DNA of 63,141 nt, filler included, from Reclinomonas americana ATCC 50394 (GCA_048213135.1; 13 parts of 13 records of this genome joined end to end with filler, not necessarily neighbours in it); one strand, 5' to 3'. Counted from the first letter of the whole stretch, positions 641-61,956 are shown. Notes: generated by a model not told the origin, from the sequence alone. A program made the numbers and translations.

Positions 641-3600
641 TTGTGGCAAGCCGTCGCCATGTCCTCCGCCAGCGTCTCCAAGGCGCGAATTCAGTTTGTA
701 ATGTCGCTTTCTCAGGCCGGTGAGGCGGCGTTGGAAGGTGCGTGATGTCTCCTCCCCCGAGAGGGAGAGAGAAAGGGGGAAAGTGGGAAAGAAACGGCGA
801 GAAGAGGATGGAGAGAGAGAGAGAGAGAGCACAGAAGGACGATGAGTGCAACCAGAAAGACTGGCAGGCGGCGAGCGTGTAAGGAGGGAGGGAAAGTGAG
901 AACACTTGCTTTCTTCAACCACACGTCGTCCTGACGCCGCCACAGCTCATCACGAGTCGATGGAGTGGGTCAGCGCTTCGCTCTTGCGCGCGTTTTTGAG
1001 ATGCAGTGACCGCATGCCGCGCTCGCTGCTGGAAGCATGCTCGGTGGACAATGGCACCATGGGCGACGCAGAGCTGCTGGAGGCGTTGGCGCTGTCGGAC
1101 GCACTTGACACGGATGGAACGCGTGGAGCACAGTTGTTGACGGATATGCTGCAAAAGTGCCTGCAATCGATGATGTATCGGCATTACGACGTTCTTGTGG
1201 CGTTTGTGGCGCGTGTGTTCTCGGCGGCGAGTCACGTACTGCGGTTCGTATGAAGACAAGGGTTGGTTTCGAATTGATTTCGTTTCTCATCTTGTCACAT
1301 GTGCAGCAGCGGAGAGGAAGTCGACGGTGCTGGCTCCACATCAAAAGCGGCTCTGCATGCCACCACCGTGGTCAAGGCGCTGACGGGTGACGGAGTCATT
1401 GACACGTTGAATGTTGCGATTGACACCACTTTGTTGTCCATCGCGTGACACTCACATTCTCTTGTTGATATAGGCATTGGTGTTGCGAATCGGCGTGTTG
1501 GACGGCTCACTGTTGCAGCACCTGAGCACCACTGTGGAGTGTGCCGGTGAGTTGGCCAACCAGCTCCGACCGTGGAATCCGAACGCAGGCTCGCAGCGTC
1601 CGCTGGTCTCACAAATGGAGCATCTGTTGGTCACACTGCTGCGCGCACTGCGGCACTGGGACAGCACGCTGTTGACCACGGAGCGCTTGTTCAGTTGCGT
1701 GGCAGTCTGAGTATGGATTTCCTGGTAAGATTGGCGTCTCACCCGGGCCTTCAGATCCACTTGTGTGCCAGCAATCCATCGAGATGCAGCAGGTCGACTC
1801 GGCTCACCTCGAACACGTAGTGACTGCCATTGGCAAGATTGCCGCGCACTTCCGCCAGTACACCATCAACCAGCGGTGCGCTTGTGCATTGATGCAATGG
1901 CTTGACGGGATAATCTGCTCACACATGTTTGTGCGTGACCCAGTGGCCCCACCTTCCAGCTGTCGCCGGCGGCTCAGCACGTGCGCTCACTCAGTCTGCT
2001 CGTGTCGGCCGCCAACTATTTTGCCCTGGCGCTCTGGTTGTGTCTGCTGGAGGGGGTGTCGCAGACGGTGGTGGAGAATTTGTGGACGCTGCTGGAGTGG
2101 CTGGTGGAGGTGAGAGGGGGAGTGGGGCAAAGGGGGAGGTGGCAAAGGGGGAGGAGGAAGGGGGGAAAGGGGAAGGGGGAATTGGGGAGGGGGGAAAGGG
2201 GAAGGGGAGGGGAGTGAAGAAGGGGGAGAAGGGGGCAAAGGGAGGGGGAGACGGGGACTTAAAGTGAGGAAGGGGAAGAAGCGAAGAGTCAGAACTGGAA
2301 GTACAGGAGGTGGAGATAAGATCAACAGAAGCTCGAAGTAGCGATGAATGCTGAGCATGTTCGGCGGCTGCTGGGTGGCGGAGCCGTTGATCACGAATGT
2401 GGAAGGAGGGATGGTGGAATTAGAGGGAAGAGGGTGGTAACAGGGAGTGAGGAAAGCGGGAAAAGCGAGGGTGAAAGGGGAAGTAAGAGAAAGAGAGAGA
2501 AAGAGAGATAGAGAGAGGAGGGAGGGAGGGAGAGAGAAACAGACAGAAAGAGAGAGAGGAGGGTAGGAAGAGAGAGATAGAACGGGAGAGCGAGAAAGTG
2601 AGAAGAGAAAGAGACTGAAGTTGAGAGACAAATAGCCAGAGAGAGAGAGAGAGAGAGAGAGGAGGAGGAGGAAGAAGAGAGAGAGGCAGGAATGGATGAA
2701 AGAGAGAGAGAGGGAGGAATGAAAGAAAGACAAGAGAAATGTGAGAGAGATACGGAAAGAGAGAGAGAGAGAGACGAGGAAGAGAGAAGAGAAAGAGAGA
2801 AACTGAGAGAGAGGAGGGAAAGAAGGAAGAGACAGGAATGGAAGAAAGAAATGAGAAAAAGAGAAAGAGAAGCAGGCAGAGAGAGAGAGAGGGGGGATGA
2901 AAAAGAAAGAAAAGAGAAATTGTGAGAGAGATCAGGGGAAAAGAGAGAGAGAGAGAGCGAGACCAACGTGGAAAAAGAAGTTTATCAAGAACCAGGACGA
3001 GGAGATCATGAAGGAGAAAGGATGCGAACGCAAGGAAGGGAGGAATAGAATATGTAGACGAGAATGAGAACAGACTTGACATGACTGAGAAGTGGAGCGA
3101 GAACTCACAGTCGTTACCGATGCAGAGCGACCAGGCCATGCCGATGGACTCGGTGCTGCCTGCTGTGCGTCTGAGCTGCCCTTCATCGCTGTCGTCGGAG
3201 ACGATTCGCATGTCACTGGCGGCTGTCGAGGCGCACTCGCTGCTGGCCGATTTGCCTCGGTGAGTCACTCGTGCTTTTCTGTCCAAGGCGACCTCGCGCT
3301 GACCGTTTCACCGCAGTCGAGCATCCTCGCATCCTTACGCCGTACCAATCATTCTCGGCCGCTTCTACGGCCTCCTACCGCACGACTTTTCCAGACTGGC
3401 TGTCGCTCTCAAGGCCACGGTGCGTGCAGTCGATCGTCTCCTGAGCAATCGTGTGTTCGCTCACATGCGCATCGCAGCTGCCACCGTCCTCGAAAGACAT
3501 GTATGCGTGTCTGCAAGAGGTCCTCAAGCGACTACCGGCTGGCACACCGTACACGCAGGCTGACTTGACGGATGCGGATGTGCGTTCGCAAATGGGTCGT

Positions 3601-4986
3601 CTTTGATGTTCAAATGTTTTTCTCACGATGATATATCGATAGGATGCGCCACTTGCTGCCGCTGGTCGTCGAAACGCAGCGGTGAGTTGATGCTGCACGC
3701 ATGAATCACTGCTTCTTTCTCTTCTCTCGTGCCGATCGTGCAATCTTGTGCAGGCTGGGCGCACACGCAATCGCGATGATACCACTGTGCCCGCGGCCTT
3801 CTCGCAGCTCTTGAACGCCAATGCGCATGTTGCGTTTCTGAGTGCATCATGCGTCGAGTGGCAGACTGTATGCTGAGCGTGGTATGGTTGTTGCAGTTGA
3901 CAAAGCCCATGTGGGATTCGTTGCGCGGATTCGGCGAGGACATGATGAATGCGGTGCAAGCATTCAACGCTCGCGCCACATCGGAAGACTTTGGTTTGCT
4001 TCCCACGATGTGTGTTTGATGCTCATTGTCGTGCCTCATACGTGCAACACACACAGCTGACTCCGCGACGCTGCTGGCTGCACTCACGCCACCAGTGCTG
4101 TTGCGCGTCGAGCAGCTGGTGCGTCTCATTGTGCACACGCAGCGAAAGACAGTTGTGTTCATCCATGATGTCGTTGTGCAGAGTCTGATTCTGCGCGTGC
4201 TGCCCGAGTCTCTGTTTTACTCTGCGTCGGAGCCATTCTTTGAGGGCGATGAACTGCATTGCATGATCCGTTGCGTTGGTGGCGAAGCAGATGTGGCGTG
4301 TCGAAGCTGACTGTAGGCGCGCAGAATTCTGTCACACGATTCTCTCGCTGCTGTGGGAGACGACGCCGCTGGATGAGCTGCTCAAGTCCGACGCGCGTGT
4401 GCAACTCGCCATGGATATTCTGTCCACGCTGGAGAAGAGGAATTCAGCGCGGTGCGTAAGTAGGGGAAGGGTATTTATTAAGGGAAAGGGAGGAGAGGGA
4501 GGGGTTGAGTGTAGAAGGGTGTAAGGGGAGGGGTGGCGTTGGGTAGGTCTGCGGCGAGCTGAGAAAGAAATGGTTGAAGAAGACGTGAATGTCGAGCGAG
4601 TGTGCGGGGTTTTGTTGTTTTTATGATTATTATTGTTCATGTTGTTGATGTTGTTGAGGTCTTGATGTTGTTAATGTTGTTGATGTTGTTGATGGTGTTG
4701 TTGTTTTTTGTTGTTGTTGTTGTTTTTGTTGTTGTTGTTCTTCTTCTTCCTCTTCTTGATCTTCTTCTTCTTGTTCTTGTTCTTGTTCTTCTTCTTCTTC
4801 TTCTTGTTCTTGATCTTCTTCTTCTTGTTCTTGTTCTTGTTCTTCTTCTTCTTCTTCATCATCATCTTCTTCTTCTTCTTCTTCTTCTTCTTCTTCTTCT
4901 TCTTTTTCTTCTTCTTCTTCTTCTTCTTCTTCTTCTCCTCCTTCTTCTTCTTGCTCTTCTTCCTCTTCCTCTTCTTCTTCATCGTC

Positions 4987-5063
<77 letters not shown>

Positions 5064-7904
5064 ATTGTTGTTGTTGTTGTTGTTCTCTTTGTTGCTCTTC
5101 TTCTTCTTGTTGTTGTCGGTGTTGTCATATCGTTGTTTTTGCTGTTGTGTGTGAGAATGACTGTCCTTGCGCTAAATTTGAGTTCATTTTGTTGCTGGAT
5201 AGAGGGCAGGAGAGACAGAGAATTTGTTATCCTGTTACGTCGCTGTGTTGTGTGCTCATAGTTGTTCGCACAGTGCCATCCTGCCATGCTCGGTGTTCTA
5301 CCACCCGCGCATCTCGGACCACGTAGCCTCCAATCCGAGCGTGCTCGAGCTCCTCGATCCCGGTTTGCTTGCCCATCGCACAGTCGCAGTTCTCACTGCG
5401 TTCACTAACTCGCTGTGTGCGACCAGCCAAACGGTCGTCAAAACTCGGTCGTGGCATGTCTTCCGTGTTTGGTCCGGGCGCGAGATCCATTCCCGGTTCC
5501 AGTCGCATGGAGGAGTCAGTCGCAGCGTCCGCAGCGTCGGCTCCGGCCGGTGCCTCGTCGTTGCTCACGGTGGCGGCACAGGTGAGCAGTGTATCACTTC
5601 TGTCTATCTGTGAACTTGAGATACTCACAGGCTGCTCTTTTCGTAGGTGCTGATGCAACGTGCGCCGTACCTGGTGCACATGGACGTGAAGAGGCAGATC
5701 TTTGCGGCGCAGGTGGTGCCGCAGAATCCGGCTGCTGTGATTACCGTGCGTCTCCGGTTGTCATAAAGTTGCTTGTGAGTCGCATCTTGCTCATCAACGT
5801 GCACAGGTGAATCGCAACAACCTCATTACCTCATCGGTGCGTGCCTGGGAAGCCATTCGCCGCACCGACTTGCGCAGGCGGCTGAAGGTGACATTTGAGG
5901 GCGAGGAAACCATCGACATTAATGGTTTGTTTGAGAAGTTTTTGTGCTCATGTGGTTGGCCTCTGTTGCTGACGATAACCGCAGGCGTGAAGCGCGAGTA
6001 CGTGACGCTCTTCTCGCGACAAGCGTTCCAACCAGACACGGGGCTGTTTGCGCACGCCGATGGCAACTTTGTGCCGAGTGCTCATGGTGCGTGGGGATTC
6101 TCACTCGCCCCGGTTAAAGCGAACAGTGCTGACCCTTTCTCTTGCAGCCACGAGTGCGGACGATCTCCGTCGCTTCGAGGTGCTCGGGCGCTTCCTGGGC
6201 AAGGTGCTGGCGGAGAGGACGCCGATTGAGCCGCACCTCAGTTCGCTTGTGTTGAAGCGTCTACTGAATCGTCGGCTGGTGCGTGAGCGAAGGGGAAGGC
6301 GGAGGGAAAGGGGGAGGGGAATGGGGAATGGATGGGGAAGGGGAATGTGAGAAAGTGGAGAGTGAGAGACTGAGAAATAGAAAGAGAGAGACTGGCAGAG
6401 AGAGAAAGAGAGAGAGAGAGAATGAGAAAGAGAGAAAGAGAGGGAGAGAGGGGGCTCTCTGCTCGCATCTCACCTCGAAGTGAGGAAAGAGAATTGTCGG
6501 ATCTCATCGCTGCGTTGGAGAGATGTTGATGGAGGTGTTTTGTGACGGACGTGCCAGCGTGTTGGTGAAATAGACTACACTAACGATGTTTGGCAGTTTG
6601 AGTGGACTGTCAGGAGAGTGAGAGAGAGAGGGAGAGAGGGAGAGAGGGAGGGCGTTGATGGAGCTCTGTGCTCGCATCTCAGCCTGACCTGAGGGAAGAG
6701 AAGTTGTCGGATATCATTGCTGCAACGGAGAGATGTTGATGGAGGTGTTCTGTGACGCACTTGCCAGCGTGTTGGTGAATTAGAATGCAGTATCGATGTT
6801 TGGCAGTTTGAGAGGATCGCCATTGGAGAGAGTCGGCGCACGAGTTCTGGGGAGTGTTGGATTGACAGCACGAGGAGTATGAAGTGAGAAGGAGGAAACA
6901 GTTGACACTAGAGGCAGAGAGAGTGGTCTGGACGGTTGTGTTGTTGTTGGTCGTGAAGAAATGTGCTCATGTTTTGAGAGGGCACGTGCTTTTTGAGAGA
7001 GCGCCACAAGACATTGTGGTCATACTTTTGATATCTGGCTCACTCTCTGCACTGCAGACGTACCACGACTTGGAGAAGGTGGACCACCAGTTCTACCAGA
7101 ACCGTTTGCTGTGGATTCGCGACAACGACGTGGAGGGCGTGGTGTTCCTCACCTTTACCGAGGGCGACGTGGAGCTGTGCGCGGGCGGACGGCAACGGGA
7201 GGTCACCAACGAGAATAAGTTGGAGTACTTGGATTTGCTGGCCGATTACAAGCTGAAGTTGGAGTTGGAGGCGCAAATGCAGCGACTGGTGCGTGGATTT
7301 GCGGATGTTATTCCCGCGGCCACCATTCAGATGTTTGCGCCGGAGGAGTTGGATTTGTTGTTGTGTGGTGTGGATGCGGTGGAGGTGAGCGGGAGGGAGG
7401 AGAGGAGGGAAGGGGCGGGATAGGGAAAGTGTGAAAGAGAAAGATTTCATACCAAGAGACATCCATGTGGTGTGCACTCACTTTTCTATCCACCCCTTGC
7501 AGCTATCGGACCTGCAGGCGCACACCAAGTACACGCAGAGTTACACAGCCGAGTCGCCCGTCGTGCAGGCACTGTGGCAGGTGTTGGGCCAGTGGGCGCG
7601 CGAGCAGCCGGAGATGCTGCGCAACTTGCTGCAGTTTGTTGCGTCCTTTGCACATGACACGCTTGTGGCGCCACATCCTCTCATCATACTATAGGTCACG
7701 GGTTCGCCACGAGTTCCTCTCGGCGGGTTCGCCAAGTACGATCCACCGTTCACCGTGCAACGCGTCGACGGCAGTGACAAGATGCCGTCGGCCTCGACGT
7801 GTTTCAACATCCTGAAACTGCCGGCCTACCCCTCGGCCGCCGTGCTGGCCGACAAGCTGACGGTGGCCGTGCAGGAGGGAGCAGTGGGCTTTGCTTTCTC
7901 GTGA
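641..7904 (+). CDS. HECT-domain E3 ubiquitin ligase (about 20 exons, 5' end not identified)
   Basis: In-frame GT-AG spliced exons give VNRNNLITSS..RLKVTFEGEETIDINGVKREYVTL, LGRFLGKVL, YHDLEKVDHQFY, VTNENKLEYL, LLQFVTGSPRVPLGGF and PSASTCFNILKLPAY (catalytic Cys), ending GFAFS* at TGA 7902-7904. Upstream exons from 641 join in frame and encode a long helical region. Confidence 0.92.
4620..5140. repeat. Compound trinucleotide microsatellite (GTT)n/(CTT)n inside a HECT intron
   Basis: Long runs of ttc/ctt and gtt/ttg between donor 4452 and the acceptor near 5260; source of the spurious poly-L/V/K/F ORFs. Confidence 0.95.
6453..6812. repeat. Intronic diverged tandem duplication, about 208-nt period
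   Basis: gctc..gctcgcatctca...ggagagatgttgatggaggtgtt...gccagcgtgttggtgaa...cgatgtttggcagtttgag occurs at about 6453-6603 and 6661-6812. Confidence 0.9.
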
Positions 7905-8135: not shown

Positions 8136-11100
8136 TCAACTGATGAACTCGTTGAACTCCTTCTTGCCCCACTCCAGGTCCGGGCAGCCGCTCACAAAGA
8201 TAAAGACCAACAGCGCAATCATGATGAGCACCATCAGGCGCAACAGCCAGGTGACAATCACGCTCTGCTTGCGTGCATCCTCCTTCTGCGGGGCGAGGGA
8301 TGAGGAGCTGGTGGGGGAGCGAAACGAGAAGGACGCAATACCTTGCGAGAAAAGTAGGCCGTGAACCACACGACAAACACGCCGGTCAGGAGGACGAGCG
8401 GGTAGAAGATGTTCGGTGGCATGGAGTTGGGGAAGTGGCCGCGACCGTACTTGATGATCAACATGGTCTGCATAAGAAAAGGGTGGTGAGCAATGGGAGG
8501 GGGGAGAGGGAAGAGAGAAAAGGGGGAGAGAAGGAGAGAGAAGGAGAGAGGGCGAGGGGAAGGTGAGAGAGAAGGATGAGAGAGAAGGGGGAGGGAAGAG
8601 GGAGAGAGAGAGAAGGGGAGAGAGAGGGAGAGGGGGAGAGAAAGACGAAGCAGGAGATACAGAGTTAGAGAAATGATGAGAGAAGAGAGCGAGATATAGA
8701 GACGGAAGGAAAAGAAAGGGACTGAGTGAGAAAAGATGTTTGAAAGAGAGAAGAGCAAGGGGAAAGAAAGACAAAGCGAGAGACAAAGACATAGAGTCAG
8801 AGAAGTGATGAGACAAGAGACAAAGGGGAATGAGCAAAGGCAAGGCAAGAGACAGAGGGAGAGATAGGGAAGAGAGAGAAAGAGAGATACGAGGGAAAAG
8901 GGGGAGAGAAAGAGAGACGATACAGAGAGAGAATTGAGAGCAAGACGAAGCAAGAGACACAGAGGCACAAAGATGAGGCGAGAGAAAGGATAGCGAGGGG
9001 AAGGAAAGGGGGACAGAGAAAGAAACACAGAGACAGTGAGACGTACAAAAATGATGTTGAGGGAAAGAAAAAAGAAGAGAGAACGAAGGGGGGAAGGAAT
9101 GAGAGAGGAAGACAAGGCAAGAGACGCAGAGATAGAGAAAGACGGCGAGAGATAGAAGGACAAAGCAAGAGACACAGAGATAGAGAGTTATGAAGAGAGG
9201 AGAGAGAAGGGATGGAATGAGCGAGAGGAAGGCAAGGCAAGAGACACGAAGGCGGCGAATGATGGTGAGAGGCAGAAGAGAGGGGGGAAGAAGCAGAGGA
9301 AACAGCAAGAGGTAGAGACAGAAACGACGTTTGAAAATGGGAAGAGCAAGGGGGAAAGAAAAGAGGACAAAACAAGAGACGAGAGAGGGGAAAAGAGAAA
9401 CAGACCTCCGCAGAGTATATCGCCAGCGCAATCCACGTGTTCACGCCGACACGCTTGGTCCGCGGGTCGACAATAAACTGGTAGTACTCGCGCAAGGCGG
9501 GCACACCGATTCCGAGCCAAATGAGCAGGCTGCACAGGCGATGAGGGAGACGAAGAGTGATGTTACAGAGATGGACGGCCAACGGACGGCATACCGAATG
9601 GTGTTCATCGGATTCTTCGGCGGCACCCACAGGATGTACTTGAGGAAGAAGCCGTACAGCTCGACGCAGTTGACCTATGCGTGGGTGAGAGAGAAGAGAA
9701 GTGAGGGGCGGGGAGGGAGAGGGAGAAGGAGAGGAAAGTTGTGTGTGTAAGCGAGGGAGAGAGGGTGAGAGTGTTCTGGGTCTATACGTGCGCAATAGCT
9801 GTCGCATACAGCGTACTCTCTCAACAATTCATCTGCTCTCCTCATTGAGAGTTCAACTGTATCTCAACGCTGCTGAATGTGTCCTGATCCTTCTCCCTAA
9901 GACGAAAATTCTCCACCAATGTATATCAGCGCTTCCCCAGCTCGCCCAGTATCTCTCTTTCCTTGCTCATCATGCCACCTCTTTGATCTAGTCATGCTGC
10001 AATATTTCTTCTCTCTCCATTCCTCTCACTCGCTTCATCAGCATTTCTCTCCTCACCCACTCCCCGCAGCTGCAGGCAGAGAAATAGTCTGCAATCGTGC
10101 AGCCACCCCCTCACGCATGTACGCAACAATCCACGCCACGGCCAGCACGTAGCAGAAACGCTTGGCGTTGTCGAGAATCTTCCACTCGAACACATCGAGA
10201 CTAGCAGCAAAGAAACAAAATGAGCAAGTGGCGTTCCGCAATCCGCAACAAAAGCGCGCAACTGCTCAGGCAGGACACGCAGGCCGAGACGCTTCACGCG
10301 GTTCGACTCGCCCATCCAGTCGTACCACTGCGGACCATCAATGAGAACGTGGAGGGGTGCCGGATGCGAGTATGCATCGGCGCTCACTTACCCTCATCTG
10401 GAAATACTCGACAGTCTTCATGCCCAGGTACATGCCCAGCAAATTGCAGCCGAGCACGTCGAGGAGCAACTGCGAGAAAGGTGAGACTTCATAGACATAA
10501 GAGGGTGCACTACAAGGGTTGACGCAACGTGATCCCACCAGCACTCCTTGAAGTTCTCCATCATGTGCTGGAAGACGCTGCGGGAGGGCGCGTGAGCGAA
10601 GAGAGAAGGTGGCAAGAAGAGGAGGAGCGCGACAACGCAACACTTCAGTCACTTCAAAGAGCAAGCTGTTGACGAGCACCAGTCGGTAGTCGCGCCACAG
10701 CAGCGCTTTGCCAAAGTAGCTGTGCGAACAGGGAAGGGTGAGCGATGAGAATGGTGGATGGTGCCGAAATTGTGCGGACAACAGACTCACCCCTGTGTTC
10801 ACGTTGACGGGCGCAGAGAGAGGGGAGGAGAGGAAGGGAAGAGGGGGAGGAGAGGGGAAGAGAGGGGAAGAGAGGGGAAGAGAGNNNNNNNNNNNNNNNN
10901 NNNNNNNNNNNNNNNNNNNNNNNNNNNNTTAATTAATTAANNNNNNNNNNNNNNNNNNNNNNNNNNNNNNNNNNNNNNNNNNNNAAGAAGAAGAAGAAGA
11001 AGAAGAAGAAGGGAGAGAGAGAAGAAGGGAGAGAGAGATGCACACAACACAATGCACACGAGCGATTGTGTAAGAGAGCGAAGCCAGGAAGGAAGAAACG

Positions 11101-11772
11101 GGACAAGAGTCTGACAGAAAGGATGGCGCGAGAGTCAGTGTGAGAGTTGTGAGAGTGTGTGTGCATAAGTGTGTGTGTGAGAGATAGAGAGAGGGAGGGC
11201 GGCACAACAGAGACAGAGGAGACCGACACAAACTTGAATAGACACCCACGTGGCGCGCATTGCAAATCGGTTCACCGTGAAAACCAAAGAGAGAGAGCGC
11301 ATGAGAGAGACAAAGACACACACATACAAGCACACACACAGCACGACATGCTGCAAATGCACACGAACACGTGTGTGTCTGTGAGAGAGAGCAAGTGCAG
11401 ATGTCGCGCATGCACAACACACACTCTCTGCCTCTCCTCTCTCTCACACAAACACACACATGCACGCAACTAACGAATGTTCTGCTCCCACGACTCATGC
11501 TCGCGAATGAACACAAAGTAGATGAGAACGCCGAGGCCGAGTGTCAAATACGTCAGTGTGTGCGGGTTCTCCAAGACACCTCCACCTCCACCTCCACTGC
11601 TGTTATTGTTGGCAACTACAGCGCTTTTCTTGCCACCACTCTTGTCGTCCGCAGAAGAGGATGCGGAAGAGGGCGATGACTCTAATGAGGTCTGAGAGGC
11701 GATTGTGGTTGTTACTGGATTAGAGGAGGAGGAGGCATCGTCGCGTGAGGCTTGCTTGCGACGAGCGCTCAT
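8136..11772 (-). CDS. Phosphatidylserine synthase, base-exchange PSS family (PTDSS1/2-like); middle exons probably hidden in the gap at 10885-10984
   Basis: Spliced translation: NPHTLTYL, YFGKALLWRD, FEVTEVVFQHMMENFKECWWDH, LLDVLGCNLLG, ELYGFFLKYILWVPPKNP, PALREYYQFI. These are the diagnostic PSS motifs. Confidence 0.93.
10885..10984. other. Artificial assembly gap linker N44-TTAATTAATTAA-N44. Others at 15612, 16952, 22825, 25275, 29327, 35528, 45658, 49495, 51466, 56924 and 59615
   Basis: Identical 100-nt spacer with stops in all six frames occurs 12 times, mostly flanked by low-complexity sequence. Confidence 0.99.
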
Positions 11773-14387: not shown

Positions 14388-16665
14388 TCAGCTGCTGCTC
14401 GGTGGTGGCGCCGGCTCGGCACACGCCACCGACTCGCCCGAGAACTGCTTCCACAAGATCTCCATCTCCCCCACCTCCTTGATGTGATGCACGGCCACGA
14501 CGCCTTGCTTCAGCTGATCGCCGCCGTACACATCAAAGCCGGTGAACGGCAAGTCGTACACGATCTTGCCGTTGTTGTTGTAGAGGTAACCGCCGAGGCG
14601 GACCTTGACGCAGTACGACAGAATGTGGTCGCCCTGCGCGCACAGACAAACAGAGTGTAAGAGAGAGGGAAAAGACGACGACGACGACGACGACCTCGGA
14701 AACGCGCAACATTGTACGGTGCACGCGGCTCCACACTGGGGAAATACTGATTGTGCCGGCGCTGCATGTCCTCCAGATCCACATTGCACGACAAGATGGT
14801 GCCGTGGCGCACCAGCTCACGCATGGCCGCCCCCGAGAACATGTACGTACCACCGTACACGATGCCCAGCAGCTCCCCCGAGAGCCAGACGTCGGTGCCC
14901 ACTGTGTACAGAAACAATATCAGCGCAAAAAATCGGACGGATGGCCAGGAGCACGCACGCGCACCATCAATCATCGCCTTCTCCGTCTCCCACAGCAGCT
15001 GGAGCATGCCCTCCGGCTGCAGTACCATGTCGTCGTCCAGGATCAAGTAGAAGCGCTTGTCGGGGAAGGCACGCCACAAATCAATGGGCGCAAACTGCAT
15101 CTTGCGCTGCCCGGTGCTCTTGTTGGCGCGGAACGGACACCCGGAGATCTTCTGAATTCCCAGCTCAGGCACATCGCGATCCGACAGCACCACATGATGC
15201 GGAAACGAGCGCAGAAACGTGCGCTGCTGACACGCCACGCGCACCGTGTCCTGAAAGCGATGCGACACAATCGCCACGCCCACGTCGTCAAACGAGGGAG
15301 CGTGAGTGCGTGCGCGCTCCACGTACGCTCCCCACGCGGGTGTCGGGCTGTAGACGTTGGAGCTGTGGAGTGGGCGGGAAGTGAGAAGAGTGCGAAGGCG
15401 TGTCCAGATATCGATGGGAGAGGGTGAAGGTGAAGGGGGAAGGGGAGGGAGGGAGAGAGGGAGAGAGGGTGAAGGTGAAGGGGGAAGAGGAGAGAGGGAG
15501 AGAGGGAGAGTGGGTTATGGGAGAAAGAGAAAGTGTGGTATCTGTGCGCAGCCGTCTGTTCAGTGCCGATATCGGTGGGCAGAGACACACAGAGAGGGGG
15601 GAGAGGGTGAANNNNNNNNNNNNNNNNNNNNNNNNNNNNNNNNNNNNNNNNNNNNTTAATTAATTAANNNNNNNNNNNNNNNNNNNNNNNNNNNNNNNNN
15701 NNNNNNNNNNNAAAGAGAATGTGCGTGTGTCAGTCTGAGAACTGTATTCGTGCGCAGCCATCTGTGTTCAGTGTCGATATCGATGGGCAGAGACACACAC
15801 AGAGAGGGGGCCCGGGGAGGTGGTGAAGGAGGCAGGGAGGGAGTGTGTGCGTGTGTGTGTGAGAGAGAGAGGAGGGAGAAAGAGAAAGAGAAAGTGCGTG
15901 AGTCTGTCTGAGTATTGAACGTCTGTCTGTCTGCTTCTCCATCTGTGCGCAGCCAGTGTCGATATCGAAGGGCAGACACAGAGAGGGGGAGAGAGGGTGA
16001 AGGGTGAATGGTGAGAAGGGAGAGAGAAAGAGAGAGTGTGCGTCTGAACTTTATGAATGTCACTGTCTGTCTGTCTGTCTGTCTGCGTGTATCTGTGCGC
16101 AGCCGTGTGTGTCCAGTGTTGATATCGAAGGGCGCGCAGAGGGGGAGGGAGAGAGAGGTCAAAGGAGAGAGGGTGAAGGGAAAAGACAGACAGAGACAAA
16201 TAGAGCGGGAAAGAGCGACAGAGAGAGAGAAAGAGAGATTCTCAGTGTCTGTCTGTTTGTGTGAGTGTGCGTGTATGTGTGTGTGCGTGTGTGTGCGTGT
16301 GTCAGCGTGTGTGTGTGTCAGTGTATGTCAGTGAGTGTGTGCGCGCGCTCACTCAACTCTTTCAACCGTCTCGGTCCAAACAACGCCTCGACCGCTGCAT
16401 CCCACCACGACAGATGCGGCAACCGCCTATGCGCATGCTGTGACTCACGCTCACACTCCAACGCTGCACCGCCAGTCACTCTCTCACTCTCATCATCAAT
16501 GAGAAAAGGGCGCGTCAAGTGCGCGGCCGTGACTGTGAGCGCGTTGTTGTGCTCGCGTGAGACGACGAGTGTGGTGATGGCGATGGCGATGAGAATGGCG
16601 GCGGGGAGGAGCAAGAGGCAGAGGAATGTGCGAAGGATGAACCGCCATCGCGTTGCCACTGCCAT
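14388..16665 (-). CDS. Fringe-like / GT31 beta-1,3-glycosyltransferase, type II membrane protein
   Basis: Exon 1 (ATG 16665) has an N-terminal TM segment (FILRTFLCLLLLPAAILIAIAITTLVV). Later exons give KRFYLILDDDMVL (DxD), YGGTYMFSGAAMREL, GDHILSYCV and VAVHHIK. Confidence 0.8.
15405..16145. repeat. Intronic degenerate tandem repeat with a GATATC(G) palindromic core, about 5 copies
   Basis: tctgtgcgcagcc...gatatcg(a/g)(t/a)gggc..gacacacagagagggg recurs near 15408, 15568, 15776, 15960 and 16121. Confidence 0.8.
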
Positions 16666-16951: not shown

Positions 16952-17323
16952 NNNNNNNNNNNNNNNNNNNNNNNNNNNNNNNNNNNNNNNNNNNNTTAAT
17001 TAATTAANNNNNNNNNNNNNNNNNNNNNNNNNNNNNNNNNNNNNNNNNNNNGAGAGAGAGAGAGAAAGAGAGAAAGAGAGGCGCAAGAGGGTGAGCGACT
17101 AAAACAGGGGAGAAGGGGAGTCCTCGCGCGCGCCTTCGACGTCGATCATCTGCATTGGACTGCATGAACACTTCTTCCACATCCCTCGCGTGATTTGTGC
17201 AAAGAGTGTGGATATTGCAGTGCATGCAGTGTGTAATAAGGGGGCAACAACCACAGGAAGTTTGCTGTCCGCCACAATGCATCGTCCTTCATGTTGTTGT
17301 TGTTGTCCGACAGGCAAGTCGTC

Positions 17324-31900: not shown

Positions 31901-32017
31901 CGAGGTGCTTGCCCACCCACCCAGAGAAGTCCTAGGAGAGAGGAGAGAGAGGAGAGAGTGAGAGTGAGTAGAGAGGAGACTGAGGAGGAAAGACAAGAAC
32001 GCGACTTGGTTGGCCAT
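28927..32017 (-). CDS. Small serine-protease inhibitor, peptidase inhibitor I78 / potato inhibitor I-like, 76 aa in 5 exons
   Basis: Exons 32017-32006, 31931-31794, 30639-30623, 29045-28987 and 28931-28927 splice to MANQDFSGWVGKHLVEG...DLPLLHRVIPPGAMVTMDYSPDRVNVSVDETNVVTRVYRG*, with the VTMDY.PDR.N...G motif. Confidence 0.85.
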
Positions 32018-35366: not shown

Positions 35367-35401
<35 letters not shown>

Positions 35402-35485: not shown

Positions 35486-35527
<42 letters not shown>

Positions 35528-38600: not shown

Positions 38601-39534
38601 CACTTGTTTCTCTTGACTGTCAACTGCAAACACGCTGTCATTGCCTCTTCACTCTATTGTGACTTCCACGATGCCGCGGAGAGACTCCGATGACATCGCT
38701 TTGTCTTGCTCGGTCTCCATCTCTCGCTATCCTTCCCTCTCCTCTGCGCTCACTTCGCCTCTTCCCTCACCACAGTGGACGCACTTCTCAAGAGCGAGGG
38801 CCACCTGCTGGAGCGCGACAGGGAGAACCCCGACCTCAAGCCCGACATCCAGTCGATGCTGCGGTCAATCAACGATCTGCTGATCACACTGAGCGATGTG
38901 GAGTCGTACGTGGAGGAAGTCACGGTGAGTGCGACTGTTTCTTCGTGATTCTCCCTCTCTCCCTCTCCTTCTCGCTGTCCTTGTATTCTGTCTGTTTCTC
39001 GCCTCTCTCTCTCTCTCTCTCTCACACACGTCTTGTACGTGCGTCTGTGTGACTGTCTGCCTGCCTTGTCTCGTGCATCCATTTTTCTTTCCTTGTTTCT
39101 TGTCTGTCCTCCTCTCTCTCTCTCTCCGGTCTCACTCTTTCGTGCTCTCTCTCATTCTCACCCTGTGTGCGTCTCCCTGTTTCTCGCCCTGTCAAAGTGC
39201 AGCTCTTTCTCTCTCCCCTCTCTTCCCACTTCGCTCTCCCTTCATCTCTCCATTCCTCCCCGTCCCTTCCCTGCCCGCTCTTTCTCCCTCCCTTCCCCTT
39301 CTCCCTCCGCCTCACCACCCTTTCCTCTTTTCGCAGGAAGGACGCAGGGCACCCGACAGCAAGATCGGCCGCGCGCTGCTCGACGTGGTGACATCGGTGG
39401 ACACACTCTCGGAGGAGGAGCTCGACACGATCCTCTCGTCACGCGTGCAAGACATGCTCATGCTGCACTACCTGGGCGACATTGCCAAGTCACAAGCCAT
39501 GATTGCCGAGCGCCTGCAAAAGCTGTGCTCGTGA
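34936..39534 (+). CDS. EIF3F: Eukaryotic translation initiation factor 3 subunit F (MPN domain), 7 exons
   Basis: VHVHPLVLFSVVDHWNRRNEGE|DRVVGALLG, KVNKEEVVIGW|YSTG, PVHLLLDT, EGRRAPDSKIGRAL, QDMLMLHYLGDIAKSQ. Confidence 0.9.
35705..36900. repeat. Intronic tandem array with higher-order structure in eIF3f intron 1
   Basis: Cores cagac..tgca..gcttct..gaaggc.ca.cagagaagagcg and variants begin at about 35705, 35865, 36028, 36181, 36295, 36416, 36572 and 36815. Confidence 0.88.
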
Positions 39535-41973: not shown

Positions 41974-44905
41974 ATGTCGGCGAGCGAGAGTACTCCATCG
42001 GACACTGCCAGTACTGTGCGTTATCGAATGAGCCCGTTCATCAATCAAGCGCTCACTCACTGATGACCAATTAATGAACAACGTGACAACACAAACAGCA
42101 TGATTTCATCACACAAGTGGTGCAAGACGAGGCCACTCGTAAGCAGCAGAAACCGCGTTTCTCGGCTGTGGAGGCCGCCGAGTTTATGCGAGAGTTGTAT
42201 GCGGTGCAAGTGGAGTCGCCGGAGGTCTCCATGCGACAGCTGGACTCGTATGATGATCTCAATTTTTTGGTGAAGGATGAGGCGCGCGTGCCGAGGTGAG
42301 AGAAGGGGAAGAAGGGGGTAAGAGGGGAAGAAGGGGAAGGAGGGAAGAAGGGGAAGGGGGGAAAGGGAGGAGGATGATGAAGGGGATTATGCATTGCACG
42401 ATTGTATCTCTCTTTTTTCACTTTGTTTGGGATGTTGTGTCAAGCTGTTGCGTGTGCGTTCAACGCTCTCTCTTTCTCTCTCTCTGTGCATTTTGATTGC
42501 AGCACGGTGTCTTGTTTTGCAATCTTGTGAGTCCTTTACAGTCTTCCTCACTCTCCTCCGTTCTCTTTCTCTCCCTTCCTCCTTCCCTCTCTCACTCTCT
42601 TTGTCTGTCTCTCTTCCCTCTCTGTCTCTGTGCATCTTGATTGCAGCACGTTGTCTTGTTTTGCCATCTTGTGAGTCCTTTACAATCTTTCTCGCTTTCT
42701 CTCTCTTTCTTTCTTCTCCTCCTCTCTCTCTCTCTCTGTCTTTTCTCCCTCCCTCTCTCTCTCTCTTTCTCTCTCTCTGTCTCTGTGCAATTTGATTGCA
42801 GCTCGTTGTCTTGTGTTGCAACCTCGTGCAAGCCATTCACATCCTTTCTCACTCTCCTCCGTTCTCTTTCTCTCCCTTCCTCTCCTCTCTCTCTCTCTCA
42901 GTCTCTCTTCCCTCTCTGTCTCTTTGCATTTTGATCGCAGCACGTTGCTGTCTTGTGTTGCACTCTCGTATGAGTCCTTCACAATCTTTCTCGCTCTCCT
43001 CCTTTCACTTTCTCGCCTCCTTCCCTCTCTCTCTCTCTCAGTCTCTCTTCCCGCTCTGTCTCTTTGATTGCAGCATGCTGTCTTGTGTTGCAATCTCGCG
43101 TGAGTCCTTCACTCTTTCTCACTCTCCTCCTTTCTCTTTCTCGCCCTCCCCCCTCTCTCTCTTTCTTTTTCTTTGTCTTCGTTTCTTTCTCAATCTCTTT
43201 TGCTCGTTCGCTCATTCGATCATCAGTCTTGTTGCTGTTGCGTACCATTCTGTATCGCCTTACTGCGTTCGTCTCCATCTCCTTCTCCGTCTCTCTCTCT
43301 CTCTCTCGCTCTCGCTCTCTGTGCCAAAGAGACGAGTGTTTCTCGTTGCATCCAGCTGTTGTTCAACGTGTTTCTCCCTTCCCTTCCCCTCCGTCTCCCT
43401 TCCCTTCCCTTCCCTTCCCCCTCTTCTCCCTTCCTTTCTCCTTCCTCGCACAGGTACATCCTCAAGGTTCACAACGGAGTGGAGAGCACGCGCTGTTCAT
43501 TCGTGGAGGCACAAAACTCTGTGAAGATGTACCTGGCGGAGCACGGTTTCGGCTGCCCGACGCCTGTGCCCTCGGTGACTGGTGAGAAGGAGAGTGCCAC
43601 CCAGAAACGGAAGCAGCCGAATGACTCTCCCTGTCTTTCTTTCACTCCCTTTCTTCTCTCTGTCTCCTTCTCTTTTTATTTTCTCTCTTCTTTCTTTCTC
43701 TCTCTCTCTCTCCCTCTCTGTCTCCCTCTCTCTCTCTCTCTCACACACTCTCTCTATTGGCAACCAACACGGGTGTTGCCTTCCTCTCAGTGTTCTGTAT
43801 CTCTTACACTCTTCGTATCTCTTTGTGTGTTGCCCTTCTCCACACAAGTTTCGCCACTGCTGCTCGTCTGGGTGTTGTCATTCTCCCAGTCTTTCCCTCT
43901 GTCTGTCACCTTGTGACTTCCCTTAGTTCTGCTCCGTCTTTGCAGCCCAGACGGGTATTGCCTTCCCCCTGTCTGTCTCTCTCTCACTCACTCTCCCTCT
44001 CCCTCTCCCTCCTCCCTCCCTCCCCGCACACAGATGGCAAGCTAATCACCTTTGTGCAATCACCCTCTGGTGTCAAGCACGCCGTCCGCCTTCTCAACTT
44101 TGTGCACGGTCGTCTGCTTGCCGACGTGGAGCAGACGGACGACTTGCTGTTCACTGTTGCGTTCTCCTCCTCCACCCTCCCCCATCTCCGTCCTTGTCCT
44201 TCTCTTCACTCTTCTCTTCTAGTTCGGATCGTGGCTCGGGCGCATGAGCCTCGCCCTCATGTCGATGAAACCGGTGCCGGCGGCCTTGCATCGCTTGCAC
44301 CTGTGGGACATGCGCAACATGACGTTCATTGCGCACTTTCTGCCTGCCGTACGAGACGAGAGCCGACGGGCGCTGGTGGAGGGCGCCATTGAGCGATTCG
44401 TGAAGACGGTGGAGCCACGGGGTGCCGAGTTGCGCCAGTCGGTGCTGCAGAACGACCCCAACGACCAGAATATCATTATTAGCGATGACGGGAAGGAGGT
44501 CTCTCACACCTTATTCTCCCTCTGTCGTCATCAACTCATCCTACGTCTGTGCAGGTGGCGGGCATTATCGACTTTGGCGACAGCGTGTACTCGTGGTTGA
44601 TCAATGAGCTGGCGCTGGCGTTGGCCTACATTATGATGGGCAAGGACCGCCTGTTGGAGATGGCGCGGCCGGTGTTCCGCGGATACACCTCGCAGTTGCC
44701 GCTGACCGAGGCCGAGTTGGCGGTGCTGCCGACGCTGACCATGTGCCGCATTGCGATGTCGGCCACCATGTCGGCGTACTCGTCGTCGCGGGATCCGACC
44801 AACGAGTACTTGCTGCTGACGTCCAACTCGGGCGGATGGAGGACGCTGGAGTTGTTGAGTGCGATGAGCGATAGTGAGTTTTTGGCGGGTGTGAGGGGGG
44901 AGTGA
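41974..44905 (+). CDS. HYKK: Hydroxylysine kinase-like aminoglycoside phosphotransferase family protein, 6 exons
   Basis: KPRFS..LDSYDDLNFLV, YILKVHN, HAVRLLNFVHGRLL, HLWDM, LQNDPNDQNIII, GIIDFGD, ELALALAY, GYTSQLPLTEAE, DPTNEYLL. Confidence 0.85.
42440..43130. repeat. Intronic tandem repeat, 5 units with mean period about 143 nt
   Basis: ttgat(t/c)gcagc anchors at 42495, 42639, 42794, 42933 and 43066. Confidence 0.9.
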
Positions 44906-45177
44906 AACGGGGAGAAGGTGGTGGTGAGGCGATTCTGAAGATAGAAAAATAATAGAAACTTCACTGATCCATACACAATTGTGAGCATCTACCAGTGATC
45001 GCCAACAAGATCAAAAGGTTTGGTGGAGAGCTTGGTATTGCAATGTTGCAGGATAGATCAAGATGATAATCATCATTGCTGTTTGGATTAGTAGAGTTGT
45101 TGATGTTGTTGTTGGCGAGCAATCAGCGCATCGCAGCTGCCGAGTCAATATTTGTCGACGTCGAAACCAGATTTGTC

Positions 45178-45838: not shown

Positions 45839-48800
45839 TCTCCGTCTCTTTGCCCATCCAGAGGCACTGTGATTGAAGGCTGGTGGCAAGCTGGCGTAGA
45901 GCGCTCCAATTGTCGTTCAGTTTGCAAGTATGTTGGATCAGAGAAGGCACCGCAATATGCTCCTCCTTGTGGCCTCTTTGGCTCTCGGTGGAGGGTATTT
46001 GAAGGCCGTCGCCTGCGTTCTCTCTTGGAGGCCTTTCTGACTTTTTGTCTCTTCTCTCGTCCTGTGTTGCTTCGTGTGTTCCTTGTGCTTTTCGTTCTTC
46101 TTCCTCTGTGTTGGTAATCTCGCTCTATCCATGTCAAGTCCTTTTGGGGCCTGTTTCTCGCATTCGTCTCTCTCTTCATTCTTCTCTTGCTCTGTGTCGG
46201 TGTCTCCATGTCGTTTCCTTTCATGGTCTGTTCTGCTCGCTTCGTCTTCTTCAAGAACGCTTGGAAAGTGCCGACAGAGTGAGTGACGACGCTGCTTTCT
46301 ATGAGATGCGTCTGCATTGCTGCCTTGACTCTGTTCTCGTCACGCAAGTCTCTCTCTCTCTAGAAAAGAGGCGCCGAAAGCGCTGTCATCCATGGACTTC
46401 CCCTTCTCTCACACCTCTCACCTGCAGAACCGCGCACTTCAACTCGCCTTGGAGCGAGAAAAGACGCGTGCAAACAAGCTGAAAACGGAGAATCGCCTCA
46501 TGCAACACCAGCAGGTGAGCGCACTGTGTGCCAAGATCATGTCCGCGACTTGGATTAACGGAGCGAGGTGGTTGTGCAGGGTCCACCACGTTCGCACGCT
46601 GCCGCCTCGGCTGCGGACAGCTCGGACTCTGACGGCGCGACATCCACCGAGGTCGCGGCGCTGCAGCAGGAGTTGCACGATGCGCGAGAAAAGTACAACA
46701 AGGTGCAGCGTGCTTTCCCTCTCCTGCTGCATCGTTGAGTTCTTCTCATGTGTCTGTCGGCGCAGCTCAATGGTCGCGTGCAAGAGATGCGTGTGGCGAA
46801 TCAGCAGATGAAGCAGGACACTATGCGGATGAAGCAGGCGCTGCTGCGGGAGTGTGGCGACGATGTGCCGGTGCAGCAGATACTCGAGGAGGGGAGTGGG
46901 TGGAAGGGAAGGGCGCAGCGCATTACCATTCTCAAGGTGAGGGGGAAGAGGGAAAGGGATGGGGGAGGAAATGGAACGGAATGTGTGAGAGACATTGTGA
47001 AAGTGGGGCGCGGTTGGTGTATGGAGGACAAGCGTGTACGGTCGACAGGATATTGACAGAACGAGGAGATGAGAGTGCATAATCAACGATGTAGGTATAG
47101 CGTGAGACAGTGAATAATGGGGAACGAGTGTGCACGGATGAGAAGATAGGAATGAGAATGATTGTGCAAGTTTGACGAGAGAATGAAAGAGTGGGGCACA
47201 GGGAAGGAGAGGGGAAGGAGAGGGGAGGGGAGGAGAGGGGAAGAGAGGGGAAGGAGAGGGGAAGTCTGCATGTTCAGTTTGGCAAGGGAATGCTGGAATG
47301 GGAGCGAGAATGCGCGATCGACAAGAGAAGGATCGGAATGAGAACGAAAGAGCGAGAGTCGACGATTTAGAAGAGAAGTGTTGCGTAAGAGAGCGACAAA
47401 ATGGGGGAAGAAGAGAAGGATCACGAGAGAGAATGCGAGGACGAGAGCGCACGATCGACTGGACAGGTTTGGAGTGAGAGTGAAAAAATGGGTACCATGA
47501 GTTGATAGTCTGCAGAGAGTGAAGGATTGGGGAGCGAGTGTGAACCGTCGATGAGTCATTTGAGAGCGTATGCGAACGAGAGTGCACGGCCAGTAAATTA
47601 TTGAAATGTGACTGGAGAGTGAGAATAGAGACAAGAGCGCACGAGAGAGTTAAAGGATGGGACGAGGGTGCGTGGTTGACGAGAGAAGTGTGACGCAAGA
47701 GAGTTCGAAAATGCGGGACGAGAGAATGCACTATCGACAAGGGAGGCGTGAGAGTGAATGAAGGAAAACAAGAGTGCACGGTCGATAGTAGGAGTGCGAC
47801 GTGAGAGAATAAAAGAATGGGGGTGGGTCAACAATAGAAGTTGCACGAGATGCGAGGACGAGAGTGCACGGTCAGCAAGAAGCTTTTGGCGAAAGGATGA
47901 GGAGATAACGCGTTCACCAAGAGCAGCTAGGAAAGAAAGAATGGAGACGAGAGTGGCAGCTGAAGAAGACAGTGGAAGACAGACAACTGTGCGTCACTGA
48001 ATGTGTGAGAGGTATGGTCATCTGCATATGTACTTGACGCATCTGTCACTCCTGCACTTCCCTCTCACATGAGCGATGATGAGACATAAAGCAGTGTGAT
48101 TCCTCTCTTTCCCTACAAGTCACTCACTTTCCCTTTTCTTCCCTTTTCTTCCTCTTCCCCATTTCTTCGCAGGGCAAGGTCCGCGACTTGAAAGCCGCCC
48201 TCGCCCAGGCCGGCGTACCCGTCGAACCGAGCCCGCGACCATCCGGTGCCGGCAGTGCTCCGAGTTCCGACCTGCTCTTCAGCGACGCGCGCAGCATGGC
48301 CACTATGTTGCGTCGAGTGTGGTTGAATCTTTCAAAGATATCTTGCCCCTCACCACCTTTCCTCCCACGCAGGCACACCACGCTGACCACCACTACCTCC
48401 GCCTCGCAACTACCGCGTGACTTTACCGAGGTGGAACGCGAACGCAATGTCCGCATTCAGGCCGCTCGCAAAGTTGGCGCCGACCAGGCCACCGCCATGC
48501 TGAAGGTCAGTGCTGTTTGATTGTTGACGGCGTGCGTGCGTATATTTCTCTCATCACTGGTGCTGCAGGAGAAAGAGGACGAGCTGGTCGACGCGCATCA
48601 AAAGAACGAGGCGCTGAAGGCTCGCGTCCGCATCCTCGAAAAGTCCTCGGCCGAGTTGAAAACCAAGATTGCAGTGTTGCTGGAAAAGGTGAGTGCCACT
48701 TCCCTTGGTGAATACACGAGCGTTTCATAACCGCCGTCGTTGCAGAGTGCCACGGACGACGAGCTGGTCAATGCGCTCAAGGCCGAGTTGCAGTCGGTGC

Positions 48801-60056: not shown

Positions 60057-61956
60057 TACGGTCGCAAGGAGAGCGGCACCGCGCTGCGCATGGGACACTT
60101 TTGGGAGATTGGTGCGCCACGCCCTCTCGCCTGTATCGAGTCCCTCTTTATTTGTTCACGCGACTCTCCCTCGTGCCACCAGGCGGCGGCGACAGCCTGG
60201 TGGAACTCGTGGACGTGGTGATCACACCAGAAAACGTGGAGAATTTCGTCGGCGTCATTGTGCTCGACTTGTCGCAGCCGCCGACTGTGATGCGCACGCT
60301 GCTAATGTGGATCAATCGCATCCGTGCACGCGCCACCGAGTGCGTGGAGCGGGCGTCGGCCACTGACGGCCAACTGGGACAGCGACTGGTCACCAAGATG
60401 ATGTCGTGGTTGAGCGGCAATCCCGATTTGTTGAGTCTGTGGTCCCTCGTTCGCTATTGGTGCTGCTGCCTGTTCTCATGACTGCGGCGGAACAGGGCAC
60501 GCATTCGACCGTCACTCGTGCCGGTGATTGTCGTGGCGAACAAGTATGATCAGTTCAAGACGCGAGATAATCCGTGCGTATTGAGGGGGAGAGAGTGGGG
60601 GGAAAGAGATGCAGAGAGGAACTAGTAGGCACAGCCGATGCTCCATTTTCCCGTTTTCTTGTCTTCAACTCTCTGTTATAGGTCGCTTAGCTGGCAGAGA
60701 GTTGCTTATCATCTCCTATGGTTTTGCCTCTACTTCCCCGTTTGACGTATATCGACTGTCACGACGATTCACGATAATTCTGTGTTTCTCCTCTCTTCAT
60801 GCTTCTTTTCTCGTTTCCTTGCCTTCAACGCTCTGTACGCGCTTGCTTGGTTGGGAGACTGTTGCTCGTCGTCTCCTGTGCTCGGTTTCCCCAGTTGACG
60901 TTCTGCCTTTCCCCTCTCCTCCATGCTTCTTTCTCGTTTCCTTGCCTTCGTCTCTCTGTGTACGCTTGCTTGATTGGAAGAACGCTGCTCGTCGTTTCCT
61001 GTACTTTTCCTCACTCTCCCCCGTTGACAAGGGCGATTGCTACACTCGTCGCCTCCTGCCGTTGCTGTCTTTCCTTTCTTCCTTCTACCCCTTCCTGCCC
61101 CTCACCTTGTCCACTCCGCGCCCCCTTCTCCCTCTCGCCTCCAGCGACGAACACCAAATCCTCGGCCGCGCCCTCCGCTACGCATGTCACTACTTTGGCG
61201 CCGCTCTGTGCACCACCGACGTCACCGACTCGTTGACCATGGCTGCGGTGCGGAGATCCCTTCTTCTGCCAAATTCCCCCCTAGTTGCTCACACCTTGCT
61301 TTCCCGTCGGCAGTACCGGAAACTCATGTCGCGCTACGTTTTCGACGTCTCGAGCCGAGACTCGACGCACGCCGATCCGCGCAAGCCCATGTTTATTCCG
61401 ATTGGTGCGTATTCCTTGTCCCTGACACCTCCCTTTCCCGAGCGTCTCCACTCACGATCTCCTCCGCACAGGATGCGATTCGGTGGCCGACATTGGCGCC
61501 GTGCCGGCACCCGACGAGGAGGAACTGAACTGGTGCGTTTTGGCGAAGCCGAATCGTTCCGTCTGCACTCGCTCACTGACTTCATGTTTTGTACACCAGG
61601 CTTCGGCGGCATCCCGATCAGAAGGAGGACAAGACGGAGGATGACGATCTGAACGGGTGGTGCCAGATCTTTGTCGTCGTGTTCCCCAAGTCGATCAAGA
61701 AGAAGGGTTTGTCTCTTTTCCGCTCAATGCCCTTCTTGAGTTCTGTCATGACCATTTCGCAGGCGACAAGCAAGGTGCCGGCTCATCGTCCGCATCGGCT
61801 GCCGCCTCCGACACGCACTGGATGGACACAGTGGACGACGGCGGCACATTTTTTGTTGAGAGCCCCGACTACTCGGAACCCATTATCGACTCGGTGCGCT
61901 CACAAAAGGAGGTGGAACTCGATCGGTACCGCATCCGACAGGGCGTCAGCAAGTGA
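60057..61956 (+). CDS. DYNC2LI1: Cytoplasmic dynein-2 light intermediate chain (5' exons not visible)
   Basis: YGRK..GHFWEI|GGGDSLVELVDVVITPE..VLDLSQP, VPVIVVANKYDQF, ALRYACHYFGAAL, DPRKPMFIPI|GCDS, YSEPIIDSVRSQKEVELDRYR. Confidence 0.92.

Follow-up and report, generated by a model that had tools for sequence, protein, structure and literature searches.

We analysed a window of 63,141 bases from Reclinomonas americana ATCC 50394 (GCA_048213135.1), the whole of the stretch whose first lines are given above, and found that its protein-coding genes use 5′ splice sites of two discrete classes, the second being (T)|GTTGCGT, in which the conserved intron block lies one base further from the cut than in the ordinary donors. 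We refer to these sites as shifted donors. The window is eukaryotic nuclear DNA of ~54% G+C, and 38% of it is low-complexity purine- or pyrimidine-rich sequence. Genes were identified by Pfam scans of 450 stop-free open reading frames (ORFs) and 48 exon segments, which revealed a HECT ligase gene (~600-7900, + strand), a phosphatidylserine synthase (PSS) gene (11772 down to ~8100, - strand), a gene with TPR, coiled-coil, kinase and RING regions (17291-20700, + strand) and a phosphate-transporter-type (PHS/MFS) gene (25945-28831, + strand). The same scans placed a JAB/MPN gene, two APH-like genes and a dynein light-intermediate-chain (LIC)-like gene on the + strand, and Sdh5, G-patch and RhoGAP/START genes on the - strand. 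Genes in the window mix introns of the ordinary and the shifted class.

Our comparisons draw on a curated, evidence-graded set of 75 introns, with GT and AG ends verified in all of them: 48 ordinary, 23 shifted, and four of the pattern GT-N3-GT with other middle bases. With low-grade introns removed, 43 ordinary and 19 shifted donors enter the class comparisons. Unmodelled genes and uncertain predictions (for example 18110, 19483, 19742, 19834, 8371, 44499, 48888, 49192, 57395, 57290 and 58865) were excluded, so the ordinary class is under-sampled. An earlier, sequence-only reading of this DNA had listed 22 shifted donors among roughly 105 introns, or about 20%; we modelled only 75 introns, and the share among them, 19/64 to 23/75, is of the same order. 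Every one of the 22 positions carries its motif on the strand given (19 GTTGCG, 2 GTTGAGT and 1 GTCGCGT), and most stand up as donors, with three (59340, 16357 and 32005) remaining weak, marked by an open frame and 3′ signals only.

Base composition separates the two classes on both sides of the cut. Ordinary donors (n = 43) carry G at -1 in 37 cases, G at +5 in 42 and T at +6 in 30, with a mixed +3 (G 27, T 8, A 6, C 2) and +4 (C 18, A 17, T 8), while shifted donors (n = 19) are close to invariant at T+3 (19), G+4 (19), C+5 (18) and G+6 (19), followed by T+7 in 16. The exon base differs just as sharply, with -1 G in 37/43 ordinary versus 2/19 shifted donors (Fisher p = 1.8e-8), or 40/48 versus 2/23 when all grades are included (Fisher p = 1.4e-9). 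The sequence-only reading had stated that ordinary donors mostly follow a G, that 20 of its 22 shifted donors do not, and that both exceptions (28521 and 52040) read GG|GTTGCG, and it had proposed a Fisher test of the association; all three statements hold, and the test, run on the curated set from this window, returned the depletion of -1 G just given. GTTGCG donors are also far more frequent than the position-independent expectation that the same reading had named as the benchmark, with 18 seen among 62 donors versus 0.77 expected from a single pooled position matrix. At -1, T occurs in 11/19 shifted donors (12/23 including weak ones) and in 2/43 ordinary donors.

The ordinary class resembles the short introns of fungi and protists, with their GTNNGT donor and CTNAY branch site, in its +5 G and +6 T as well as in its CTSAY motif ~19 nucleotides (nt) from the 3′ end and its median length of 65 nt; the shifted class differs from that type in having C at +5 and the pattern GT-N3-GT. 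Usual donors had been described as GTGCG or GTGAG, a description that proves too narrow. Because ordinary-register G|GTTTG donors also exist (3994, 5363, 5925 and 61707 on the + strand; 56613 and 53476 on the - strand), the main class is better described as GTNNGT-like; these donors read GTTTGCTT twice and also GTTTGT and GTTTGA, and they retain -1 G and +5 G. Two GTTTCGT donors, at 41505 (+) and 53619 (-), share the GT-N3-GT pattern with T at +4 and fit the consensus better when slid one base; one of them follows an exon G at -1, the other an A. Outside the donor, shifted introns look like ordinary ones: their median length is 66 nt, CTSAY lies within the last 50 nt in 15/19 of them versus 37/43 ordinary introns, and every intron ends in CAG or TAG.

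The distribution of the motif in the window points the same way. GTTGCG occurs 57 times versus 30.8±5.2 in shuffled sequence (0/100 shuffles reached 57), and GTTGCGT 24 times versus 6.4±2.3, a count that no shuffle reached. The gene spans, 44 kb in all, hold GTTGCGT 21 times in sense and once in antisense orientation and GTTGAGT 4 times in sense and never in antisense; the corresponding counts for GTTGCG[A/C/G] are 17 and 11. The window has 29 copies of GTTG[CA]GT; 19 of them serve as donors in the models, and 0 are on the antisense strand of an assigned gene. Donor use falls to 3/64 among motif copies with another base at +7, which indicates that T at this position belongs to the signal. The motif by itself is insufficient for donor use, because several sense copies are exonic in the models: GTTGCGT at 13660 (+), close to where a 533-codon ORF ends, at 33918 (-), overlapping the Sdh5 start codon, and at 49037 (+), in the coiled-coil gene, as well as GTTGCGC at 3920 and 4100 (+), in HECT exons.

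Gene finders that require just GT at the donor also brought the motif forward, with GTTGCG the top-ranked donor hexamer (9-12 of ~200 predictions) and first again in a second run (9-11 of 109-129 donors); these naive finders chained genes or strayed into CT/GA repeats and were used solely for ranking hexamers. A donor-blind gene finder, given GT only together with an intron-content model, recovered 13/22 sites, where 8 recovered sites were among the 17 introns used to train that model (first 8 nt trimmed) and six lay outside the training set (14710, 28521, 38398, 48307, 52040 and 56705). Across the 22 shifted-donor introns there are 44 alternative in-frame GTs, with zero for 1694, 28521 and 52040. 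Other approaches discriminated poorly: open-frame rescue alone passes 536 GT sites and is too permissive because the DNA is GC-rich, the regular expression for 3′ signals has a background of ~20%, and k-mer enrichment upstream of the 3′ signals was drowned by low-complexity sequence.

Individual junctions show that the cut falls before GT and that these are genuine GT-AG introns of the U2 type, with six shifted-donor junctions exact by profile or homologue alignment. Five shifted introns interrupt the HECT gene, all on the + strand. Intron 1413..1473 (t|GTTGCGA, 61 nt) was recovered donor-blind, is open in phase 0 on both sides and has a CTCAC branch motif; 1694..1754 (a|GTTGCGT, 61 nt) was also recovered donor-blind, with no alternative in-frame GT before the read-through stop; and 4270..4324 (c|GTTGCGT, 55 nt), a third donor-blind recovery, has a CTGAC branch motif. 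Intron 3829..3896 (t|GTTGCGT, 68 nt) is graded moderate: the chain 3829-3896, 3994-4056, 4270-4324 leaves every exon open, and the alternative intron 3829-4056 requires a spurious additional intron within the ORF 4020-4307. Within the HECT domain itself, intron 7638..7694 (t|GTTGCGT, 57 nt) has Pfam profile positions 194-237 on its upstream side and 238-305 on its downstream side, and tblastn with P0002, P0004, P0005 and P0008 places there an insertion of exactly 19 residues, or 57 nt. The sequence-only reading had named LLQF|VTG and WWDH|LLLD among the conserved motifs that fix its donors, and the junctions at these motifs, 7638 and 10528, are indeed fixed to the residue.

The PSS gene holds five shifted introns on the - strand. 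At 10470..10528 (c|GTTGCGT, 59 nt), the WWDH|LLLD junction, the PSS profile stops at 119 upstream and resumes at 120 (120-145) downstream, and at 10578..10641 (t|GTTGCGT, 64 nt) it runs from 77 to 102, passes through a split codon and continues from 104 to 119, so both are profile-fixed. Intron 10201..10262 (a|GTTGCGC, 62 nt) was recovered donor-blind and has phase 2 in the hand model. Two longer introns are graded moderate: 9675..10127 (t|GTTGCGT, 453 nt), a phase 0 hand model whose downstream exon matches PSS profile positions 199-228 starting at its second residue, and 10720..11470 (a|GTTGCGT, 751 nt with an assembly gap inside), where the upstream frame hits TAG exactly at the donor and a phase 2 join forms a Tyr codon and continues into a PSS-like exon. 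In a glycosyltransferase-like gene, also on the - strand, intron 14634..14710 (t|GTTGCGC, 77 nt) was recovered donor-blind, and the spliced model aligns gap-free across the N|G junction (blastp, P0130 and P0129), where the unspliced alignment ends.

The two shifted introns of the PHS/MFS gene (+) were examined with a hidden Markov model (HMM) built from 61 phosphate-transporter homologues. Splicing at 26775..27088 (t|GTTGCGT, 314 nt; next exon 27089-27156) and at 28521..28584 (g|GTTGCGT, 64 nt) together gives 628.5 bits in one domain, and the rival model scores 550.1 bits spread over two. The alignment is gap-free from the first junction into the following transmembrane helix and unbroken across the second, which lies inside a conserved motif, was recovered donor-blind and has no alternative in-frame GT. 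In the JAB/MPN-domain gene, intron 38398..38775 (t|GTTGCGT, +, 378 nt; IG|LD) was recovered donor-blind, and the MitMem_reg profile covers positions 9-52 in the downstream exon, from residue 9. Searches of the PDB with single exons of 24-56 residues, including those at 38398, returned nothing usable.

The remaining sites are scattered over further genes. Intron 44156..44222 (t|GTTGCGT, +, 67 nt), in the second APH-like kinase gene, falls outside the automatic models and is graded moderate, with a phase 0 frame open for 177 codons upstream and 125 downstream. Donor-blind recovery supports 48307..48372 (t|GTTGCGT, +, 66 nt, coiled-coil gene), which has a CTCAC branch motif; 51980..52040 (g|GTTGCGT, -, 61 nt, or 58 nt with its end at 51983), which has no alternative in-frame GT and the G-patch domain of its gene in the downstream exon; and 56638..56705 (c|GTTGCGT, -, 68 nt, RhoGAP/START gene), where START profile positions 100-138 reach the final codon before the donor. 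In the dynein-LIC-like gene, intron 60430..60495 (t|GTTGAGT, +, 66 nt; NPD|L) comes from a second-pass model and is graded moderate; the donor-blind model took an in-frame GT 9 nt downstream (60439), and a homologue search with the exon found none. Four further sites are graded weak: the claimed intron 59272..59340 (a|GTTGCGT, -, 69 nt), which lies outside every model and is open in all three phases; the claimed donor of 16253..16357 (a|GTTGAGT, -), with 167 codons of upstream frame and a CA-repeat intron that has no secure acceptor and no model; that of 31932..32005 (a|GTCGCGT, -, 74 nt), with a 4-codon first exon, an open frame and a CTCAC branch motif but no model; and 44854..44995 (t|GTTGAGT, +, 142 nt), a candidate absent from the earlier list and found in a second-pass model only.

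It is conceivable that the introns are real and their true donors are other nearby GTs, or that some of these sites are exonic. The junctions were modelled from the DNA sequence, and the gene finders did err, proposing false GTTGCG donors at 4100 and 13774 and preferring 60439 to 60430; the three exonic sense copies of GTTGCGT and the three weak claims point in the same direction. Against such a modelling artefact stand the six homology-exact junctions, the scarcity of in-frame alternatives and the 21:1 strand bias, which is independent of any intron model, and we consider it very improbable.

Several other descriptions of these introns were tried and rejected. They do not form an introner or repeat-derived family: when the short ones, 15 of the 23 shifted introns, were aligned with MAFFT, conservation was confined to the donor and the 3′ AG, and mean column identity was 41%. 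U12-type introns have the donor consensus RTATCCTT and the branch site TCCTTAAC. The shifted class is like them in being a second discrete donor class beside the main one in the same genes, but in CTSAY branch motif, YAG end and length it agrees with the main class; its donors read GTTGCGT, its branch motifs are CTCAC, CTCAT or CTGAC, and the U12 consensus is absent. Cutting after G+1 with a normal AG acceptor would break the frame at the six homology-fixed junctions, and sliding the cut by one base at both ends would leave the mRNA unchanged in only 8/19 introns and give ends that are neither GT nor AG. The copy at 42447 was rejected as a donor and lies within a long intron.

Some features of the genes and of the window stand apart from the splice sites. 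The single gene at 17291-20700 (+) joins TPR repeats and a long Q-rich coiled coil to a protein kinase domain, with a RING finger at the C-terminus, and its exons at 19483-19890 are wrongly modelled (4-nt exons). The adjacent genes at 39460-41917 and 41974-45303 (+) have APH/kinase-like ends and resemble tandem paralogues, the 5′ half of the second being incompletely modelled. For the phosphate-transporter exon 26131-26772 (+), the best relatives are protist transcriptome proteins, one of them bearing the label Ihof, with identities of 56-57%, and proteins from dictyostelids and other Amoebozoa come next at ~50%; with this top identity, the protein collection holds no close sequenced relative of the organism. 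Twelve gaps of 100 bases, each built as N44-TTAATTAATTAA-N44 and carrying stops in every one of the six frames, have the look of assembly gaps into which a stop linker was set (10885-10984, 15612-15711, 16952-17051, 22825-22924, 25275-25374, 29327-29426, 35528-35627, 45658-45757, 49495-49594, 51466-51565, 56924-57023 and 59615-59714), and GA/CT simple repeats surround nearly all of them. Both GC skew and AT skew take strongly positive values through most of the window and are reversed at ~30-45 kb, tracking the strand of the GA-rich repeats and not the gene strand.

Alignment to the main-class consensus shows how the two donors are related. From -1 to +6 this consensus is GGTGCGT, so that the block GCGT lies at +3 to +6 in ordinary donors versus +4 to +7 in shifted ones. 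In the normal register, 2-3 of the 7 positions agree with it in shifted donors, but a slide by +1 raises the agreement to 6/7 (15 sites) or 5/7 (4 sites), compared with 4-7 of 7 for the main class itself; a poor fit unslid and a good fit at +1 is the consensus pattern of a shifted-register 5′ splice site. The shifted donors are also more uniform than a displaced copy of the ordinary ones, with G at +4 in 19/19 versus +3 G in 27/43 (p = 0.0013) and C at +5 in 18/19 versus +4 C in 18/43 (p = 6.6e-5).

At the level of sequence, the shifted class is an abundant variant of a known but rare kind of site, the off-register 5′ splice site. According to PMC4856993, both a shifted and a +2/+3-bulged register have been proven in human 5′ splice sites, off-site binding of U1 may occur with U6 fixing the cut, and the validated non-canonical registers together account for 1.5% of 201,541 human sites. 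As in the human shifted-register sites (Roca and Krainer 2009, which PMC4856993 cites and retests), the intron opens with GU and an extra base ahead of the conserved block; moving the site by one base brings it into line with the consensus, G+1 has the position at which -1 G normally pairs, and cleavage remains at GU. Unlike those sites, which are rare, the shifted donors make up a large fraction of the introns modelled here. A limited search of the literature, which is not proof of absence, found no GTTGCGT/GUUGCGU donor class and no abundant off-register donors in any organism, and for shifted or bulged registers it found human work only.

The explanation we favour, with modest confidence, is that the ordinary recogniser serves the shifted class one base out of register. 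The same 5′-splice-site recogniser, presumably the 5′ terminus of U1 small nuclear RNA (snRNA), would bind with intron G+1 in the usual place of the exon -1 G, leaving T+2 as the sole mismatch, and later steps involving U6, U5 and Prp8 would still cleave at GU. Because the two strongest pairs would be weakened, the rest of the site would have to fit nearly perfectly, and the near-invariance of G+4, C+5, G+6 and T+7 may reflect compensation by these remaining positions.

Several of our results weigh against this explanation. When each site was folded by nearest-neighbour rules against the textbook U1 5′ end (taken from a table in PMC4856993), the predicted duplex of the shifted sites was negligible in any register, with a median of -0.8 kcal/mol versus -6.3 kcal/mol for ordinary sites, and G+1 was on U1 position 9 in 3/19 and unpaired in 14/19; C occupies +5 in 18/19 although textbook U1 would favour A there, and the 27 ordinary donors with +3 G divide at +4 into C 14 and A 13 (p = 0.0027). 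A human shifted example in PMC4856993 is stable at -6.5 kcal/mol, compared with the -0.8 obtained for GUUGCGU here. The exon side is not merely the ordinary profile slid by one base, because -1 T in the shifted donors (11/19) exceeds -2 T in the ordinary ones (8/43; p = 0.003), and this excess is predicted by neither a shifted nor a bulged register. The canonical set is moreover incomplete, some of its donors having been picked by motif-aware scoring, and the evidence base is 63 kb of DNA sequence with ~11 genes. The idea in the sequence-only reading that G+1 stands in for the missing -1 G holds at the level of sequence, in the 5-6 of 7 matches when slid and the loss of -1 G, but in its simplest form it is opposed by the U1 folding.

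Alternatively, U1 may pair normally with G+1 and T+2, one T (+2/+3) may bulge out, and pairing may resume at G+4. PMC4856993 (with Roca et al. 2012 cited there) gives such a +2/+3 bulge as experimentally proven in humans and predicts it for 68 of 201,541 human sites, of which curation left 54, and these sites share with ours a GUU start and one surplus U between GU and the paired block. The two -1 G sites, 28521 and 52040, do fold in this way with textbook U1. However, a bulge would leave exon -1 opposite U1 C9, where G is favoured, so that the -1 G pair would be kept; the preference for -1 G is lost in the shifted class, and G+1 sits on U1 position 8 in just 2/19 folds. A bulged register thus seems improbable for the class.

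The pairing results raise the question of a recogniser that departs from the textbook, either a sole U1 whose 5′ end pairs with GCGU, with a G facing the C, or a second U1-like snRNA complementary to (U)GUUGCGU in the normal register. The C at +5 in nearly all shifted donors, where textbook U1 gives no pair, and a predicted textbook-U1 pairing of about zero both speak for it. A template complementary to the window consensus yields a median of -6.2 kcal/mol for shifted versus -8.1 kcal/mol for ordinary sites, with G+6 on position 4 in 18/19, although this template was derived from the same data and its fit is partly circular, and the frequent -1 T could add one pair to a dedicated RNA. On the other hand, few eukaryotic RNA sequences are as conserved as the 5′ end of U1, which is nearly universal across eukaryotes, and the +4 of ordinary donors, with A about as common as C, makes no strong demand for C. 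Searches of the window against Rfam gave no match to any family at gathering score and no snRNA gene at E up to 1; sub-threshold matches to plant and animal microRNA families and SCARNA2 (35361-35527, 16213-16410 and 11370-11460) are artefacts, because all lie on simple repeats and on both strands. Such a recogniser is a serious but unlikely candidate, and we put forward only tentatively, as doubtful, the broader proposition that 5′ splice sites here are not read by the universal ACUUACCU U1 end alone and depend on an altered U1 that pairs with GCGU or on a second U1-like snRNA for (U)GUUGCGU.

What is known of off-register recognition comes from a handful of human sites, and its proof needed suppressor-U1 genetics. 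A genome whose introns rely on one near-invariant off-register donor in a fifth to a third of cases would offer a natural system for asking how the place of cleavage is set independently of initial recognition, what amount of pairing U1 needs, and whether the U1 5′ end can evolve. Annotation is affected as well: gene finders with a single donor matrix will mis-model ~1 in 4 introns in this genome, as some of those used here did, and a large share of its predicted proteins is corrupted in consequence. If an altered or second U1 does serve these sites, the lineage would possess a third kind of spliceosomal intron recognition of its own, used by a fifth to a third of its introns.

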